From positions 33,259 through 97,258 of the forward strand of contig CALWRA010000002.1 in the NCBI GenBank assembly GCA_944383825.1: DNA of 64,000 nucleotides. The letters are read 5' to 3'. This DNA is from an uncultured Acetatifactor sp. Its GTDB lineage: Bacteria > Bacillota > Clostridia > Lachnospirales > Lachnospiraceae. Made by a program: the position numbers and the translations under genes. Below the pieces are notes generated by a model, which searched no databases, was not told the DNA's origin, and saw nothing but the letters and a program-made list of their open reading frames with translations. Of the stretch, positions 50,407-55,600 are shown in pieces. Each line of letters opens with the position of its first letter. Within the stretch, counting starts at the first letter, position 1.

Positions 50407-51204
50407 ATGAGTATAACTGGAATTGTTACGGCGGCGGTCGTAGTAGGGATTGTAGGTATTTTTGTGGGACTCTTCCTGGGAGTGGCAGGCCTTAAATTTA
50501 AGGTGGAGACGGATGAGAGAGAAGAAGCAGTGTTGGCGGCGCTTCCCGGGAATAACTGCGGCGGCTGCGGATTTGCAGGCTGCTCGGGACTTGCGGCGGC
50601 CATTGTAAAAGGGGAGGCTCCAGTGAATGCCTGTCCTGTTGGAGGGGAAGCGGTGGGTAAGGCCATCGGAAAGATCATGGGGGTGGATGCGGCAGAATCC
50701 AAAAAAATAGTAGCTTTTGTCCATTGCCAGGGGGATTGTGAAAAAGCCGGGACGGATTATGACTATTGCGGAGCTGAGGACTGCCGTATTATGAGCTTTG
50801 TACCCGGAGGAGGGCCAAAGACCTGCAGCAGCGGGTGCCTGGGATTTGGATCCTGTGTGAAGGAGTGTCCCTTTGACGCCATTCATGTGGTAAAGGGTGT
50901 GGCGGTAGTGGACAGAGAACAGTGTAAAGCATGCGGCAAATGTGTTCAGGCGTGTCCCCGGCATTTGATTTCGCTGATTCCCTACGAGGCAAAGGTGGCA
51001 GTGGCCTGCAGCTCGGCGGAAAAGGGGCCTGTGGCTGTGAAAGCCTGTCAGACAAGCTGTGTGGGCTGCGGCGTCTGTGTGAAAGCCTGCCCGCGGCAGG
51101 CTGTGAAGCTGGAAAATTTCCATGCTGTGATTGATCAGGAAAAGTGTGTGGGCTGCGGTATCTGTGAACAGAAGTGCCCAAGAAAGGCAATTGTAAGAAT
51201 CTGA
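50407..51204 (+). CDS. rnfB: Rnf complex subunit B
   Basis: LPG.NCG.CG..GC and multiple ferredoxin CxxCxxCxxxCP motifs. Confidence 0.95.
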   Translation: MSITGIVTAAVVVGIVGIFVGLFLGVAGLKFKVETDEREEAVLAALPGNNCGGCGFAGCSGLAAAIVKGEAPVNACPVGGEAVGKAIGKIMGVDAAESKKIVAFVHCQGDCEKAGTDYDYCGAEDCRIMSFVPGGGPKTCSSGCLGFGSCVKECPFDAIHVVKGVAVVDREQCKACGKCVQACPRHLISLIPYEAKVAVACSSAEKGPVAVKACQTSCVGCGVCVKACPRQAVKLENFHAVIDQEKCVGCGICEQKCPRKAIVRI

Positions 51205-51228
51205 TTTTAATATAAGAAGAATAGTCAT

Positions 51229-51269
51229 GAATTGATGCCCGCTGAAGCGGATAGGGAGGTGTAAATATG
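51229..51269 (+). repeat. hairpin-SD leader motif, copy 3 (before the GH25 gene)
   Basis: GAATTGA-TGCCCGC-TGAA-GCGGATA-GGGAGG-TGTAAAT-ATG. Confidence 0.8.
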
Positions 51270-52382
51270 CGTTTGCCGGAGGATTACAACGATCATTCCG
51301 GTCTTACTCCTACAGTGTTCTCGGCTATTGTGGCGGTGACGCTGTTTGTGGGTGTGATTTTGGCGGCTGTGCTTTTGATAAATAACCAAAGACCTGCAAG
51401 AGCACAGACAAATAAACAGAAAAGCGTTTTTGCGGAGGAGATAGAGGAGGAGGGAAGCTCTGTAGATACGGGAGAGCCTCTCAGAACGGATGAAATCCTT
51501 ACAGGAAGCACTCTGAGTCCGGATGATCTGGATTTCTGGGATCTGTATCCCGAGGAGACCGCACAGGCTCCTGAGCCTGAGAAAGAGAGCGTTGAGGAGA
51601 CTGTTGAGAATGACCCGGCGTCTGATGGGAAACATACTCTGATTAAATATGCGGATGGAGAGGAGGAATGGTTGTTGATCAGTCCATATCTTCCAAAGCA
51701 CGAGTATGATTTTACCAAGCTGGTATATCAGTCCAATTTGATGAAGTATTATGAGGAGGGCAACCTTGTCTCTTTCGTAGGGGCCGACATATCCAAAAAC
51801 CAGGATTACGTGGACTTTGTAGAGTTGAAAAAGGCCGGAGTGGACTATGTGATGCTGAGAGTGGGGGCCCGGGGATATGGCAGCGGACAGCTGGTTCTGG
51901 ACGAATATTTTGCCGACAATATCAGGCGAGCCTCTGACGCAGGTCTGGAAATCGGCGTTTATTTCTCATCTCAGGCCATAACAACTGATGAGGCCGTTGA
52001 GGAAGCGAATATGGTTCTGGAGAATATCAGGGATTACAGTATTACTTATCCGGTGGCTTTTCGTATGGAATCTGTAGAGAATGACGCCTCCAGAATAGAC
52101 AGCCTGAGCAAATCCGAGAAGACGGAGATTGCCAGAGCTTTTTTGGATGCCGTGCAAAACGCGGGCTACAAGCCCATGCTGTACGGGAATAAGGAGTGGC
52201 TGCTCAAGCAGATTGATTTATCTAAGCTGACCTCCTATGACATATGGCTTTCTCAGGAGGAGGATATTCCGGATTATCCTTATAGATTTACCATGTGGCA
52301 ATATACGAAAAAGGCATCTATAGATGGGATAGCAGGGAACGCCAGCTTGAATATTAGCTTTATCGATTACTCGGAAAAATAA
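51267..52382 (+). CDS. membrane-anchored GH25 muramidase-fold protein
   Basis: N-terminal TM, acidic linker, GADIS..Q, ..RVG.RGYG.G, YF.SQA, W.SQ, MWQYT. Confidence 0.88.
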   Translation: MRLPEDYNDHSGLTPTVFSAIVAVTLFVGVILAAVLLINNQRPARAQTNKQKSVFAEEIEEEGSSVDTGEPLRTDEILTGSTLSPDDLDFWDLYPEETAQAPEPEKESVEETVENDPASDGKHTLIKYADGEEEWLLISPYLPKHEYDFTKLVYQSNLMKYYEEGNLVSFVGADISKNQDYVDFVELKKAGVDYVMLRVGARGYGSGQLVLDEYFADNIRRASDAGLEIGVYFSSQAITTDEAVEEANMVLENIRDYSITYPVAFRMESVENDASRIDSLSKSEKTEIARAFLDAVQNAGYKPMLYGNKEWLLKQIDLSKLTSYDIWLSQEEDIPDYPYRFTMWQYTKKASIDGIAGNASLNISFIDYSEK

Positions 52383-53188
52383 TTCAATATTTTCGGAGAT
52401 ATTTCCAGGCTGGAATAAATTTCCGCATATTGGGAGGGAGAAATGCCATCAATATAATTTGGGGTAAATTTTTTGGAGACTCCGTTTTTTTTCAGACAGT
52501 CAATGGCTTTGTTGTAGGCAATGGCGGCTTCTGTCTCCGTAAGATATTTCCCGATCAGATAATTTCCTCTGATGTGGATACGGGCGGTATAAAGATACCG
52601 CCCGTTTTTTTGCCTCTGGGGGCGGACACCATGATAAATGTTGTGTATCTTGAGATTTTCCCGGCGAAAGTCCGTGGGATCATTATTGATAAAGGAAAAA
52701 TCTACTCCGCAGACCGCGTAATTTTTGATGCCGTAGCGAGAACGAATATTCACCTGCATACCGTAGTCCGCGACAAAATAGTGATTGCCCCGGCACATAA
52801 TTTTGTGGGAGGAGTAATAGAAAAGATCGTCGGGGTCAAACTTCAGAACGTGATCCGGGGAAAGATAGTAATAAAACAGCTTTTGGCCTATATATATGGG
52901 ATTGCCGAAATAGATGCCGTTGTCCCGGAAGTTTAAAAGACACACCCATTTTTCAAAGGGCAGAGGAGAATTTTCAGAGTATGATTTCAAAGTGACAAGG
53001 GAGTCCTCCAGCAAGCGCCGTCCCTCCAAATAGGCAAAATGGGCCTTTTCAGGACAGGAAAAGCTTCCCAGACTGATATGCTTTCGCCGGTAGGTCAGGG
53101 AAGAACGATAACAGATCTCTCCGTTTTTCCGAAGGGAGGAAAAAACACCTTCATAATGCAGTTCAGATCCATTCTCATACCTCTTCAT
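52367..53188 (-). CDS. tandem AP2-like domain protein with a degenerate central HNH-like segment
   Basis: Two Y.GV....KNG...Y...I...LG.F/Y...E.A..AY repeats flanking FINNDPTDFRRENL; GAGGTG RBS before ATG 53188. Confidence 0.6.
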   Translation of the reverse strand: MKRYENGSELHYEGVFSSLRKNGEICYRSSLTYRRKHISLGSFSCPEKAHFAYLEGRRLLEDSLVTLKSYSENSPLPFEKWVCLLNFRDNGIYFGNPIYIGQKLFYYYLSPDHVLKFDPDDLFYYSSHKIMCRGNHYFVADYGMQVNIRSRYGIKNYAVCGVDFSFINNDPTDFRRENLKIHNIYHGVRPQRQKNGRYLYTARIHIRGNYLIGKYLTETEAAIAYNKAIDCLKKNGVSKKFTPNYIDGISPSQYAEIYSSLEISPKILNYFSE

Positions 53189-53255
53189 AAATAAGATCAC
53201 CTCATCAAAAGATAATATCATTATAACATTATTTTTTCAAATAGGAACATTTTAG

Positions 53256-53284
53256 AAATATTTTTAGGACTTGCTTCATAAACT
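53256..53284 (+). promoter_or_regulatory. sigmaE-like sporulation promoter
   Basis: AAATA-N16-CATAAACT before a CwlJ/SleB-like gene. Confidence 0.55.
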
Positions 53285-53331
53285 AATATATGGTTGGAGA
53301 AAAACTCCAACGGAAAGGGTATAAATGCATT

Positions 53332-53952
53332 ATGTATAAAAAGGCCGTTAGCGCTTTGGCGCTTGTGAATTTATTGTTCCTGTTTGGATTTATCTGTCTG
53401 AGGGGAACACAGATCAACAGGCTGGCATCAGAGCCCGCCCATCAGATAAAAGCGGATGAAAGTCTGCTTGCGGACAGCGAGAGCAGCAGTATTGGAATCG
53501 TATATGTGGCGGCATCCGGGCAGAGGGTTGTGGATTTTAGCGTTCTGGAAAAAGAGCTTGCATATGATCTGGAGGAAAAGGATCTGGAGATGCTTCTCAG
53601 GATCGTGGAGGCGGAAGCGGGATGTGAAGATGAGGAAGGAAAGCTGCTTGTGGCAAATGTAGTTTTAAACAGAGTGGTCAGCGAAAAATTTCCGGATACT
53701 GTCTCCGATGTAGTGTTTCAGCGGGAAAACGGCGTGACACAGTTTTCTCCTGTATCCAACGGAACCATATGGAGTGTGGAAATTAGTGAAGAAACGGTTG
53801 AAGCCGTTGGACGTGCCCTGGAAGGGGAGGATATTTCTCAGGGAGCCCTTTATTTTGCTGCCAGAGAATATGCGGACAGCAGTAAAATGAAATGGTTCGA
53901 CGATAATCTGACTTTTCTTTTCAGGCATGGAGGACATGAATTCTTCCGGTAG
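53332..53952 (+). CDS. SleB/CwlJ-family (Hydrolase_2) cell wall hydrolase
   Basis: RIVEAEA, VANVVLNRV.S..FP.TV..V.FQ, QFSPV, GALYF, GGH.FF. Confidence 0.9.
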   Translation: MYKKAVSALALVNLLFLFGFICLRGTQINRLASEPAHQIKADESLLADSESSSIGIVYVAASGQRVVDFSVLEKELAYDLEEKDLEMLLRIVEAEAGCEDEEGKLLVANVVLNRVVSEKFPDTVSDVVFQRENGVTQFSPVSNGTIWSVEISEETVEAVGRALEGEDISQGALYFAAREYADSSKMKWFDDNLTFLFRHGGHEFFR

Positions 53953-54026
53953 AGGAGAGCCGTAGCAAAAGCGCAGGAACAACGGAGCGGACCATGACGG
54001 AACTCCCGGGGCGGCCGTGAAAGTAA

Positions 54027-54055
54027 TTGCGCCCTCTTTGAAATTATGCTACAAT
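54027..54055 (+). promoter_or_regulatory. sigmaA-type promoter of thrC-deoC-peptidase
   Basis: TTGCGC-N17-TACAAT with an extended TG. Confidence 0.7.
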
Positions 54056-54074
54056 ATTTCATATTTGGGTCCTT

Positions 54075-54115
54075 GAGGCCATGCCCGCTGGGGCGGGCAG
54101 GGAGGTAAAAGTATG
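54075..54115 (+). repeat. hairpin-SD leader motif, copy 4 (before thrC)
   Basis: GAGGCCA-TGCCCGC-TGGG-GCGGGCA-GGGAGG-TAAAAGT-ATG. Confidence 0.75.
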
Positions 54116-55600
54116 GAAGTATTGTATAACAGCACGAGAAGCCAGGAACAAGCAGTAAAAGCTTCGGAGGCAATTCTGAAGGGCCTTTCCGAAGATGGGG
54201 GGCTTTTTGTACCGGATCATATTCCGGCCCTGGACATAAGTTTCGGAGCCCTTGCCGATATGAGCTATCAGGAAACCGCTTATGAGGTGATGAAGCTTTT
54301 TCTTACGGATTTTTCTGAAGATGAGTTAAAGGATTGCATCGACAGAGCTTATGATGCCAAGTTTGATACGGAGGGAATCGCGCCTCTCAGAGAAGCGGAT
54401 GGAGCGTTTTACCTGGAGCTGTTCCACGGCCCAACTATTGCCTTTAAGGATATGGCTTTGTCCATTCTGCCCCATTTGCTGATTACCTCAGCCCGAAAAA
54501 ATCATATCAAAAATGAAATAGTGATTTTGACAGCCACCTCTGGAGATACCGGAAAAGCGGCCCTTGCAGGCTTTGCAGGTGTGGAGGGGACGCGGATCAT
54601 CGTATTTTATCCCAAAAACGGCGTCAGTCCCATTCAGGAAAAACAGATGGTGACCCAGAAGGGTGAAAATACTCTGGTGGTGGGAATCCACGGCAATTTC
54701 GATGATGCGCAGACGGGGGTTAAGAGGATTTTTTCGGACAAGGCTCTTGCTGAGGAAATGGAGAAAAAAGGCTATCAGTTTTCCTCGGCCAACTCCATTA
54801 ATATCGGCAGACTTGTGCCCCAGATATGCTATTATGTTTATGCCTATGCAAGACTGCTCAAGGCTGGAAAAATTGCGGAGGGAGAAAGGATCAACGCAGT
54901 GGTTCCCACTGGAAATTTCGGTAATATTCTGGCGGCTTTTTATGCTAAAAACATGGGGCTTCCCATTGGCAGACTGATCTGTGCGTCCAATGAAAATAAG
55001 GTGCTGTATGATTTCTTTCGCACAGGCGTGTATGACAGAAACAGGGAGTTTGTGCTGACCTCATCCCCGTCCATGGATATTTTGATCTCCAGTAATTTGG
55101 AAAGGCTGATTTACCGTATAGCGGGGAATGATTCGAATGAAAATAAAGAGCTAATGGATGCTTTAAACGGGCGGGGACGATATGAGATCACGGAGGCGAT
55201 GAAGAAGCAGCTCTCCGAGTTTTACGGGGGCTATGCTGATGAGAAGGAGACCTCGGAAGCTATCTCCAAAATGTACGGAGACTGCGGATATGTGATTGAT
55301 CCCCACACAGCGGTGGCTTCGGCCGTTTACCGTAAATATGAGCAGCAGACGGGAGACCATACGAAGACGGTCATAGTTTCTACGGCCAGTCCCTTTAAAT
55401 TTACCAGAAGCGTCATGGAAGCTATTGATCCCAAATATGAAGGTATGGATGATTTTGCTCTGGCTGACGAGCTTTGCCGCATTGCCTGTATAAAGGAGCC
55501 TAAGGCCATCGAAGAGCTACGGACTGCGCCGGTGATACATGACAGGCAATGCCAGGTGGGTGAAATGAAAAACGTGGTGCGGGAATTTTTGGGACTGTAA
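54113..55600 (+). CDS. thrC: threonine synthase
   Basis: GL..DGGLFVP, ELFHGPT.AFKD.AL (PLP lysine), ATSGDTG, NSINIGRL, PTGNFGN. Confidence 0.96.
   Translation: MEVLYNSTRSQEQAVKASEAILKGLSEDGGLFVPDHIPALDISFGALADMSYQETAYEVMKLFLTDFSEDELKDCIDRAYDAKFDTEGIAPLREADGAFYLELFHGPTIAFKDMALSILPHLLITSARKNHIKNEIVILTATSGDTGKAALAGFAGVEGTRIIVFYPKNGVSPIQEKQMVTQKGENTLVVGIHGNFDDAQTGVKRIFSDKALAEEMEKKGYQFSSANSINIGRLVPQICYYVYAYARLLKAGKIAEGERINAVVPTGNFGNILAAFYAKNMGLPIGRLICASNENKVLYDFFRTGVYDRNREFVLTSSPSMDILISSNLERLIYRIAGNDSNENKELMDALNGRGRYEITEAMKKQLSEFYGGYADEKETSEAISKMYGDCGYVIDPHTAVASAVYRKYEQQTGDHTKTVIVSTASPFKFTRSVMEAIDPKYEGMDDFALADELCRIACIKEPKAIEELRTAPVIHDRQCQVGEMKNVVREFLGL

Follow-up and report, generated by a model that had tools for sequence, protein, structure and literature searches.

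A two-AP2 chromosomal protein of Lachnospiraceae, probably descended from an HNH-AP2 homing endonuclease

Introduction

Free-standing homing endonucleases of the HNH_3 (HNN)-AP2 kind have been described in Xanthomonas phage Xop411, where they are represented by p17, p31.1, p42.1 and p55.1 (PMC2248197). Phages also carry degenerate genes of HNH-AP2 type, such as those of group V of the Xoo phages and the broken hegG and hegJ of T5 (PMC2248197). In prophages of Bacillota, the CasPR anti-CRISPR repressors combine CapR with AP2 and perform sequence-specific silencing without cutting (bioRxiv 10.64898/2026.02.23.707548).

The gene considered here lies in a window of 64,000 nucleotides, the whole stretch of DNA that was analysed, from an uncultured Acetatifactor sp. 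(contig CALWRA010000002.1). An earlier note, made from the letters of this window, had read its product as two AP2 domains separated by an inactivated HNH nuclease. We compared this protein and its relatives with the systems mentioned above.

Results

The gene and its family

52367..53188, minus strand: coding sequence of the AP2 / HNH-remnant / AP2 protein, 273 aa, stop codon 52367-52369 (open reading frame and translation)

The ATG at 53188 is preceded, 9 nt ahead, by the ribosome-binding site GAGGTG. Another ATG, at 53221, would give a longer reading frame, but it falls within the conserved -10 element, which makes it an unlikely start. Three peptides quoted in the earlier note are all found in the translation exactly as given there.

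Homologs of the protein form 6014 clusters at 90% identity in a set of 5.8 billion proteins, and every name given to these 6014 homologs is 'hypothetical protein'. Relatives are encoded in at least 546 species genomes. Searches of the window protein against Pfam, NCBIfam and PADLOC gave no usable match, and an Rfam search over 51000-54300 gave none.

Two AP2 domains

53006..53155, minus strand: N-terminal AP2-like domain (AP2-N), residues 12-61
52484..52636, minus strand: C-terminal AP2 domain (AP2-C), residues 185-235
52370..52483, minus strand: conserved C-terminal tail, residues 236-273

In the AF2 model of the whole protein (pLDDT 92.3, pTM 0.80), both domains consist of a three-stranded antiparallel sheet on a C-terminal helix, as AP2 (PF00847) requires. 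The elements are strands 15-19, 25-33 and 36-43 with helix 46-61 in AP2-N, and strands 188-192, 198-205 and 209-215 with helix 218-234 in AP2-C. The tail, in which N244, Y245, Y254 and Y258 are conserved in the family alignments, is modelled as two short helices. Foldseek with the whole model retrieved the AP2 domains of TEM1 (E 4.5e-3, probability 1.00) and WRI1 (E 7.8e-3, probability 0.91). When the family profile was compared with the sequences of solved structures, the best match was the second AP2 of WRI1 (7wq5), located at AP2-C (E 6.8e-7). AP2-N aligned by hhalign with the AP2 of phage HNN-AP2 endonucleases at 95.9% probability (E 5.9e-9), and it is also matched by PHROG HNH-endonuclease families (phrog_99 at 1.4e-7).

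The internal duplication pointed out in the earlier note is real and well above chance: residues 9-66 match residues 181-240 at E 5e-05 (BLASTP), and the sub-alignments of AP2-N and AP2-C match each other at 97.1% probability, E 5.8e-11 over 53 columns (hhalign). The two AP2 domains proposed there are thus borne out by fold and by profile.

The Pfam AP2 model did not match the window protein at E up to 10. It matched 10 of 23 relatives, with a best E of 9.3e-10; the gathering cut-off of 33.3 bits was unreached, the three best relatives shown scoring 29.9, 29.8 and 23.8 bits. One close homolog carries a precomputed PF00847 match. At the level of sequence profiles, the family clearly reads as AP2. 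The YRG-type first strand and the RAYD-type helix (AAxAYD) are recognisable in YEGV...AHFAY and YHGV...EAAIAYNKA, and G14/V15, G187/V188 and A221-A228 hardly vary, if at all, in the family alignments. Several canonical AP2 DNA-contact Arg/Trp positions appear replaced, as far as the sequence can be read.

An HNH_3-box remnant and the loss of catalytic residues

52637..52957, minus strand: central domain, residues 78-184 (107 residues), between both AP2 domains
52646..52708, minus strand: HNH_3-box remnant GVDFSFINNDPTDFRRENLKI, residues 161-181 (colinear hhalign, shuffle controls, weak Pfam HNH_3 matches)

The central domain is closed by a box of the pattern F-x-N-x-D-x-x-D-F-R-R-E-N-L, which keeps the structural HNH_3 arrangement N-G-x-x-x-D-x-R-x-x-N-L followed by AP2, N178-L179 included. 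From the box through AP2-C, the protein is colinear with phage HNN-AP2 endonucleases (hhalign, 96%, E 4.4e-9), with high posterior across the box. In this alignment SF-INND-PTDFRRENL of the 273-aa protein stands against DH-INGx-xxDNRIxNL of the phage proteins, followed by a 16-residue gap and then by AP2; the box contributes about 10.7 score units above column shuffles (z ~5). Taken alone, residues 158-184 scored 24.0 against 13 phage HNN-AP2 endonucleases (E 1.3e-4, hhalign), exceeding all 60 column shuffles (mean 9.8, sd 2.5, maximum 18.2). The resemblance of residues 161-181 to HNH_3, suspected earlier by eye, is therefore above chance. Weak Pfam HNH_3 matches fall at the same position in 6 of 23 members.

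None of the catalytic His (D-H), the Asn of D-N-R and the third ligand of HNH_3 (PF13392) is present at the aligned positions. The profile alignment places F166 (52691-52693) at the catalytic His and F174 (52667-52669) at the metal-binding Asn. Position 166 is Phe in 82 of 82 species and in 22 of 23 deep members, the remaining one having Thr. Position 174 is Phe or Tyr in all 82 species and Phe, Tyr, Leu or Met in the deep members, while position 164 is Tyr or Phe in all 82, with a His in one of the 23 deeper members. The structural box residues N168, D173, R175 and N178 are invariant across the 82 species, and R175 is changed to Ser in a single deep member out of 23.

The earlier note had proposed that both catalytic positions were replaced by aromatic residues, and this holds throughout the 82 species (F166, F/Y174). 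As to the His-to-Phe change, the residue is indeed lost, but the ungapped profile alignment places the site at F166 and not at F164, which the pairing of VDF with VDH had implied. No close homolog carries a His at the aligned position; an intact His in close homologs would, according to the earlier note, have spoken against its reading. In addition, the 16-residue gap coincides with the helix of the phage proteins that comes after N-L-R and supplies the third ligand (Asn or His), and only 6 residues lead from N-L to the Y-H-G-V of AP2-C. This indicates, at the level of aligned sequence, that the helix bearing the third ligand was deleted.

Could the protein still act as a site-specific nuclease or nickase through non-canonical residues? 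Some HNH relatives tolerate variation (HNN, HNK), one deep member has a His at position 164, and the box has further His residues close by. Nevertheless, an invariant Phe at the general-base position in 82 species, Phe, Tyr, Leu or Met in place of the Asn and the absence of the third-ligand helix all argue against cutting, as does the behaviour of the gene, which is a single-copy core gene under purifying selection and in fixed synteny, unlike homing endonucleases. We consider such activity very improbable.

The central domain

No other part of the protein is as conserved as the central domain: its mean column entropy is 0.86, versus 1.3 for either AP2 domain, and 33 of its 107 columns are invariant (82 species). 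Being more conserved than the AP2 domains, it would have a role beyond that of a linker. Modelled alone, it reached a pLDDT of 92.3.

Foldseek of the isolated domain against the PDB gave a best E of 0.13 and no HNH. Whole-model fold matches in BFVD are mostly HNH + AP2 endonucleases, down to E 2e-11, and include HNH-AP2 proteins of 139-170 aa aligned along their full length. Against PHROGs, the central domain alone matched no HNH family, and the unnamed phrog_3973 matched 3 members only. A comparison of the central-domain profile with PDB sequences returned only de novo TIM barrels, which are spurious summed matches and were discarded.

The beta-beta-alpha-metal fold of a dead HNH, as suggested in the earlier note, was thus not recovered, the isolated central domain having no significant PDB match. 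Since, moreover, the third-ligand helix is apparently deleted, we regard the HNH part as a sequence-level remnant in a larger conserved domain and not as an intact dead fold. Consequently, the HNH ancestry rests on the 15-25-residue box, colinearity and topology.

On another view of the same data, function would reside chiefly in the central domain and would not consist in recognising a DNA sequence: the domain could bind a protein partner or RNA, or be an enzyme whose active site is new, with the AP2 domains as mere tethers. Its being the most conserved part, the lack of a solved-structure match and the many conserved charged residues (K80, D89, R133, Q145, R151, D163, D173 and R175) agree with this. 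On the other hand, most of the residues invariant across the family are of structural kinds (N, P, Y, F, G), the cluster of charged residues D118/D120/D121/H128 is variable among deep members, and no family library returned a catalytic match, which makes this explanation unlikely in our opinion.

Distribution, gene order and selection

Among the best 80 loci, all but one of which are labelled Lachnospiraceae or unclassified, the gene has a GH25 neighbour in 79 and a SleB-like neighbour in 68, in one fixed order; orientation is constant except at one rearranged locus. The reading frame is intact in 82 of the 82 family coding sequences analysed, and dN/dS is 0.04-0.10 for the closest pairs. The gene thus behaves as a core gene, with conserved synteny and strong purifying selection, and no mobile genes are found nearby, in agreement with the core chromosomal location proposed in the earlier note.

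The mobile, patchy, phage- or intron-associated distribution expected of HNH_3/HNN-AP2 homing endonucleases was not observed. A search of 2.9 million viral contigs gave only 2 matches to the family, weak or partial, and a plasmid collection gave none, so the patchy phage-like pattern that would have contradicted the earlier reading is not found. One viral-contig match (L116) is an unrelated single-AP2 phage protein beside a serine recombinase. Two matches labelled 'Bacteriophage sp.' were not established as phage; one of them was examined and proved to be a piece of bacterial chromosome carrying citrate synthase, MCP, thrC and aconitase genes.

Phages often carry HNH-AP2 genes that have degenerated (PMC2248197), and the gene might accordingly be what is left of a selfish homing endonuclease gene in decay, serving no function in the host. 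This is contradicted by the intact frames, the low dN/dS and the relatives in hundreds of species genomes, together with the invariant third of the central-domain columns and a conserved promoter; we find it hardly credible.

In deep clades, the neighbours of the gene are housekeeping genes: thrC and leuD in Roseburia-type relatives, panD and thrC in relatives of the P0129 clade, a CheX-like gene and metG in the P0131 relative, and acpS and a response regulator in the P0314 relative. thrC and a pair of CheY-like and CheX-like genes recur beside deep relatives and represent a candidate functional link. The CheY-like and CheX-like pair was looked for in the window and is absent from it.

Promoters and an antisense hairpin

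53198..53228, minus strand: the gene's own promoter and ribosome-binding site, with the extended -10 TGTTATAAT at 53220-53228 and GAGGTG at 53198-53203 (consensus match only)
53255..53284, plus strand: SigE-type promoter of the divergent Hydrolase_2 (SleB/CwlJ-like) gene, GAAATATT, 14 nt, CATAAACT
52580..52612, plus strand: terminator-like hairpin and T-run, within the AP2-C part of the coding sequence and antisense to it

TGnTATAAT/TATACT is found upstream of the gene in many listed relatives, the Roseburia-type locus included. This conserved extended -10 is of housekeeping type and looks vegetative from its sequence. The element at 53255..53284 is one that we take to be SigE-type, going by the published B. 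subtilis consensus. It is recognisable in most relatives with the same gene order, which agrees with the divergent Hydrolase_2 gene and SigE-type promoter described in the earlier note. The intergenic element GCAAGTCCnnAAAATAT, written on the strand of the gene, was considered as a binding site of the protein itself and dropped because it reads as the SigE-type promoter and its spacer is unconserved at distance.

Fragments of the gene are present in gut metatranscriptome assemblies, in low-depth, unstranded contigs that may include DNA. Three small metatranscriptomes cover the AP2 protein gene and not the hydrolase gene, which is weak evidence.

These observations bear on whether the protein is devoted to regulating hydrolases of the spore cortex or the cell wall, binding the shared intergenic region and controlling the divergent SleB/CwlJ-like gene and perhaps the convergent GH25 gene. 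The frequency of both neighbours in the best 80 loci speaks for such a role, as do a divergent Hydrolase_2 neighbour in a relative of 50% identity and the conservation of the intergenic element, part of the promoter spacer included. However, the SigE-type promoter explains this conservation, and the spacer is unconserved at greater distance. The gene order is confined to one clade and that one 50%-identity relative, the Roseburia-type, P0129, P0131 and P0314 deep relatives having no hydrolase neighbour. The vegetative-looking promoter of the gene and, weakly, the three metatranscriptomes point in the same direction. We therefore think it improbable that the hydrolases are its dedicated targets.

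The hairpin, whose 11-bp stem includes 7 G-C pairs, carries a T7 run and lies about 200 nt beyond the stop of the convergent GH25 gene. Many relatives have it as well, with changes occurring in pairs. Compared with synonymous re-codings of the same peptide, its folding is better by more than 2 sd in 32 of the 82 species.

Discussion

We consider that the 273-aa protein probably goes back to an HNH(HNN)-AP2 homing endonuclease and is now chromosomal and inherited vertically; the ability to cut would have been lost and the protein kept as a putative DNA-binding protein. With its cutting residues lost and two AP2 modules kept, it is most likely a protein that binds DNA and leaves it uncut. The two AP2 modules would be held in one polypeptide by a rigid and highly conserved central scaffold, and such an arrangement suggests that a bipartite DNA site is read, as by plant double-AP2 factors. 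A reader of this kind, presumably expressed from the housekeeping-type extended -10 promoter, could act as a transcription regulator or an architectural protein; the roles of transcription factor or nucleoid protein that the earlier note had put forward are both conceivable. The central domain may provide a third DNA contact or a partner-binding surface.

A fuller scenario, which we propose tentatively and with less than even confidence, is that of a Lachnospiraceae-wide, housekeeping-expressed DNA-binding regulator or architectural protein, derived from a domesticated HNH-AP2 protein whose dead core became the scaffold between AP2 readers. In this scenario the coding sequence would, in about 40% of species, also serve as the intrinsic terminator of the convergent gene on the other strand, and amino-acid changes would preserve the pairing of the hairpin.

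If confirmed, the passage from a selfish nuclease to a host DNA-binding factor in bacteria would provide a clean example of domestication, and the protein would stand as a living intermediate on the path from endonuclease to transcription factor that has been proposed for AP2 domains. Bacteria would also offer a parallel, still recognisable as such, to the way in which plant AP2/ERF factors have been proposed to have arisen. The family is among the more conserved unnamed proteins of Lachnospiraceae, a dominant gut family, and a domain architecture is now available for it that Pfam and NCBIfam miss.

Comparison with known systems

The protein resembles phage HNN-AP2 endonucleases in the colinear succession of the HNH_3 box (x-N-G-x-x-x-D-x-R-x-x-N-L) and AP2, and in a similar order of elements before the box (strand, strand, short helix with a conserved Arg); the fold matches of its whole model are proteins of that kind. 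It differs from them by the replacement of His and Asn by Phe, by the missing third-ligand helix, and by an additional N-terminal AP2 domain with its linker. Its gene is a single, syntenic bacterial core gene under strong purifying selection and is not mobile.

Like the degenerate phage HNH-AP2 genes, it has lost nuclease residues or domains of an HNH-AP2 ancestor. Unlike those genes, which are truncated and decaying in mobile genomes, it is full-length and present in hundreds of species, and its central domain is the best conserved.

With plant double-AP2 factors (WRI1, PDB 7wq5; the ANT/AP2 group), it shares the presence of two AP2 domains in one chain, and a bipartite site is expected of both. 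The short conserved linker of the plant proteins is replaced here by a 107-residue HNH-derived domain, and several canonical DNA-contact Arg/Trp positions differ; the relation is at the level of domains only and implies no orthology.

Finally, CasPR offers a precedent for a homing-endonuclease-derived AP2 domain serving as a DNA binder in bacteria, although CasPR proteins differ in having a CapR zinc module, one AP2 and sometimes HTH domains, and are prophage-borne and dedicated to counter-defence.

Genomic context of the AP2 gene

The AP2 gene, from a bacterium of the chicken gut, has ordinary chromosomal neighbours: rnfC-B and a GH25 gene on one side and, on the other, a divergent Hydrolase_2 (SleB/CwlJ-type) gene followed by thrC and deoC. 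No second copy is present within the 64-kb window, and a defence-system search with the AP2 protein gave no match.

Features of the AP2 gene and its neighbours (window coordinates)
51267-52382, convergent to the AP2 gene: GH25 gene (Pfam GH25 match)
52367-53188, minus strand: open reading frame of the AP2/HNH-remnant protein, 273 aa
52580-52612, plus strand: terminator-like hairpin, 11 bp with 7 G-C pairs, plus T7, antisense to codons of AP2-C (the C-terminal AP2 domain)
preceding ATG 53188, minus strand: ribosome-binding site GAGGTG
53220-53228, minus strand: extended -10 of the AP2 gene, TGTTATAAT, a conserved element
53255-53284, plus strand: SigE-type promoter of the divergent Hydrolase_2 gene, GAAATATT-N14-CATAAACT
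53290-53952, plus strand: SleB/CwlJ-like Hydrolase_2 gene

A longer frame from ATG 53221 is an unlikely start, because this codon sits within the conserved extended -10, with GAGGTG following before ATG 53188. The convergent AP2 and GH25 genes share 16 nt at their 3' ends (52367-52382); two relatives share 23 nt there, and in a third a 21-nt gap separates the genes.

Distribution and conservation of the family

We found 6014 relatives in a set of 5.8 billion proteins, every named one being 'hypothetical', and 368 family representatives in a 50%-identity library. A relative is present in at least 546 species genomes, and Roseburia hominis has a family member. Of the best 80 loci, almost every one carries the label Acetatifactor, Waltera or Lachnospiraceae bacterium; a few are assigned only to 'bacterium' or Bacillota, and one assembly is labelled Bacteroidaceae. 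GH25 lies beside the family gene in 79 of these 80 and the SleB-like gene as well in 68; a single rearranged locus excepted, the arrangement of the window is kept, so that gene order is essentially fixed. Values of dN/dS for the closest pairs are 0.04-0.10 (Nei-Gojobori). The central domain is the best conserved part of the protein (mean column entropy 0.86 versus about 1.3 for each AP2 domain), with 33 of its 107 columns invariant.

A search of a plasmid collection returned zero family matches, and 2.9 million viral contigs yielded a partial family match at the end of one contig and a single-AP2 protein that is unrelated. Two other matches are labelled 'Bacteriophage sp.'; the one examined proved to be a chromosome fragment. 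The earlier note had placed the gene in the core chromosome without mobile context, and gene order, dN/dS, neighbours and the plasmid and viral searches all agree with this. The AP2 gene is thus a vertically inherited, non-mobile host gene under purifying selection. A decaying relic is contradicted by its presence in at least 546 species genomes, the dN/dS of 0.04-0.10 and the conservation of the central domain.

Among deeper relatives, a SleB-like neighbour occurs in one 50%-identity relative and is absent elsewhere. The idea that the protein is a dedicated regulator of the adjoining hydrolase genes has the gene order of a single clade as its sole basis. Around the deep relatives, thrC and a CheY-like/CheX-like gene pair recur in variable arrangement.

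Gene order near deep relatives (P, proteins; L, loci of relatives)
Roseburia-type locus: response regulator, CheX-like gene, thrC (divergent), family gene, leuD-like gene
P0129 clade: panD, family gene, thrC
P0131: response regulator, CheX-like gene, family gene, metG
P0314: acpS (4-nt overlap), family gene, response regulator, CheX-like gene
CheY-like (125 aa) and CheX-like (295 aa) pair: L107 2595-3862; L111 2954-4221; L113 6925-8184; L005 2037-3305

In four deep clades the pair adjoins family members or lies close by, preceding the gene in some arrangements and following it in others; the 64-kb window lacks it. It may reflect a functional link or merely old synteny; both recurrences are leads only.

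Transcription

The minus-strand promoter of the AP2 gene, TGnTATAAT/TATACT, is conserved, also at the Roseburia-type locus, and points to housekeeping-type transcription. Metatranscriptomes from three runs contain low-depth contigs over parts of the AP2 gene and none over the hydrolase gene, weak evidence given that the contigs are unstranded and possibly DNA-containing. As the earlier note proposed, the AP2 gene is divergent from a spore-cortex-type hydrolase gene (Hydrolase_2) with a SigE-like promoter: GAAATATT-N14-CATAAACT fits the Bacillus subtilis SigE consensus. The element is recognisable in most relatives of the same gene order, its spacer being kept among close relatives only. It would put the transcription start near 53291, and the true start codon is therefore probably ATG 53332 (MYKKAVSALA...) and not 53290. 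The leader contains a possible 7-bp stem, GTTGGAG-aaaaa-CTCCAAC.

The hairpin at 52580-52612 lies about 200 nt beyond the convergent GH25 stop, within the AP2-C codons for QKNGRYLYTAR. Many relatives also carry the hairpin and T-run, where changes occur in pairs and in some cases alter amino acids: GRY/YTAR in the window (GGGCGG, CCGCCC) is GQY/YTVR elsewhere (GGACAG, CTGTCC). Its folding exceeds that of synonymous re-codings of the same peptide by more than 2 sd in 32 of 82 species, and at most 1% of re-codings match it in 22 species. The hairpin probably serves as terminator for GH25 from an antisense position inside the AP2 gene, which would give the two convergent transcripts an overlap of about 245 nt.

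Two AP2 domains

The three peptides quoted in the earlier note are all present in the 273-aa protein, and the two stretches of the internal duplication are homologous (BLASTP E 5e-05; profile-profile 97.1%, E 5.8e-11, 53 columns). The window protein has no match in Pfam or NCBIfam. Of 23 diverse members, 10 match Pfam AP2, the best with E 9.3e-10; the scores inspected fall below the gathering cut-off. The family profile matches Arabidopsis WRI1 (7wq5) at its second AP2 domain (E 6.8e-7). The N-terminal domain, AP2-N, is matched by PHROG HNH-endonuclease families (1.4e-7) and, in profile comparison, by the AP2 of phage HNN-AP2 endonucleases (95.9%, E 5.9e-9). We modelled the whole protein with AlphaFold2 from an alignment of 23 sequences; the model has high confidence (pLDDT 92.3, pTM 0.80) and folds residues 15-61 and 188-234 each into a three-stranded sheet with a packed helix. 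Foldseek against the PDB returned AP2 structures only, TEM1 (E 4.5e-3, probability 1.00) and WRI1. Profiles, model and structure search therefore support the two AP2 domains first suggested from sequence. Six distant members of alignment A2 (P0132, P0150, P0153, P0156, P0159 and P0166; 35-44% identity, about 350 aa) have a third AP2 at the C-terminus and share the dead HNH box.

HNH remnant in the central domain

Phage Xop411 of Xanthomonas encodes the HNN-AP2 homing endonucleases p17, p31.1, p42.1 and p55.1 (PMC2248197). Against a profile of these four and viral-contig relatives (identity down to 35%), residues 165-235 are colinear with the phage enzymes (96%, E 4.4e-9), S-F-I-N-N-D-P-T-D-F-R-R-E-N-L pairing with D-H-i-N-G-x-x-x-D-N-R-i-x-N-L at high posteriors. 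After this box a 16-residue gap stands opposite the phage last-ligand helix (t..eN..N), and AP2 follows. The score of 56.2 fell to 45.5 (sd 2.0) when the columns of residues 161-182 were shuffled, and the box alone scored 24.0 (E 1.3e-4) against a mean of 9.8 and a maximum of 18.2 in 60 column shuffles. Both controls support this alignment; independent, weak Pfam HNH_3 matches fall at exactly the box residues in 6 of 23 members.

Residues of the HNH_3 box in 82 species
166, catalytic His in HNH_3: Phe in 82 of 82
174, metal-binding Asn in HNH_3: Phe or Tyr
N168, D173, R175, N178, structural box residues: invariant

The 23 deep members (35-60% identity) have F at position 166, apart from a single T, and one of F, Y, L or M at position 174. 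The replacement of His by Phe was thus correctly predicted, although the equivalent residue is F166 and not the F164 that the first pairing implied, which leaves the conclusion unchanged; that of Asn is borne out at position 174. All three catalytic positions are lost in the family. A residual, non-canonical nuclease activity would be a rival to a nuclease-dead protein.

In BFVD, the matches to the whole model were mostly HNH endonucleases and AP2 proteins (best E 2e-11), including HNH-AP2 proteins of 139-170 aa aligned end to end. Modelled alone, the central domain (pLDDT 92.3) gave nothing significant against solved structures in the PDB (best E 0.13, no HNH), so the beta-beta-alpha-metal fold was not confirmed; with the last-ligand helix deleted, it would be incomplete anyway. 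Before the box, the model has strands 136-141 and 144-147, a short helix 148-152 (with conserved R151) and strand 164-166, an order that appears to match the HNH_3 layout. A low-confidence stretch of the alignment, GNHYFVADYGMQVNIRSRYGI opposite GY..v.l.gk.y.aHRLAW, agrees with this order of secondary structure. Alternatively, the central domain may have a function that does not involve DNA.

Origin and possible role

The protein has an AP2/HNH-remnant/AP2 architecture. Most likely it descends from an HNH-AP2 homing endonuclease and, nuclease-dead, has been retained by the lineage for binding DNA. With its two AP2 readers held on a rigid and conserved scaffold it would bind without cleaving, and a bipartite DNA site would be expected; we infer that the protein binds DNA at such a site and serves as a regulator or an architectural protein. 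The earlier interpretation, a domesticated dead homing endonuclease, is partly supported: the AP2 pair, the box homology, the lost residues and the non-mobile gene speak for it, but the beta-beta-alpha-metal fold was not recovered. We regard the protein as a domesticated, truncated HNH-AP2 derivative of double-AP2 architecture.
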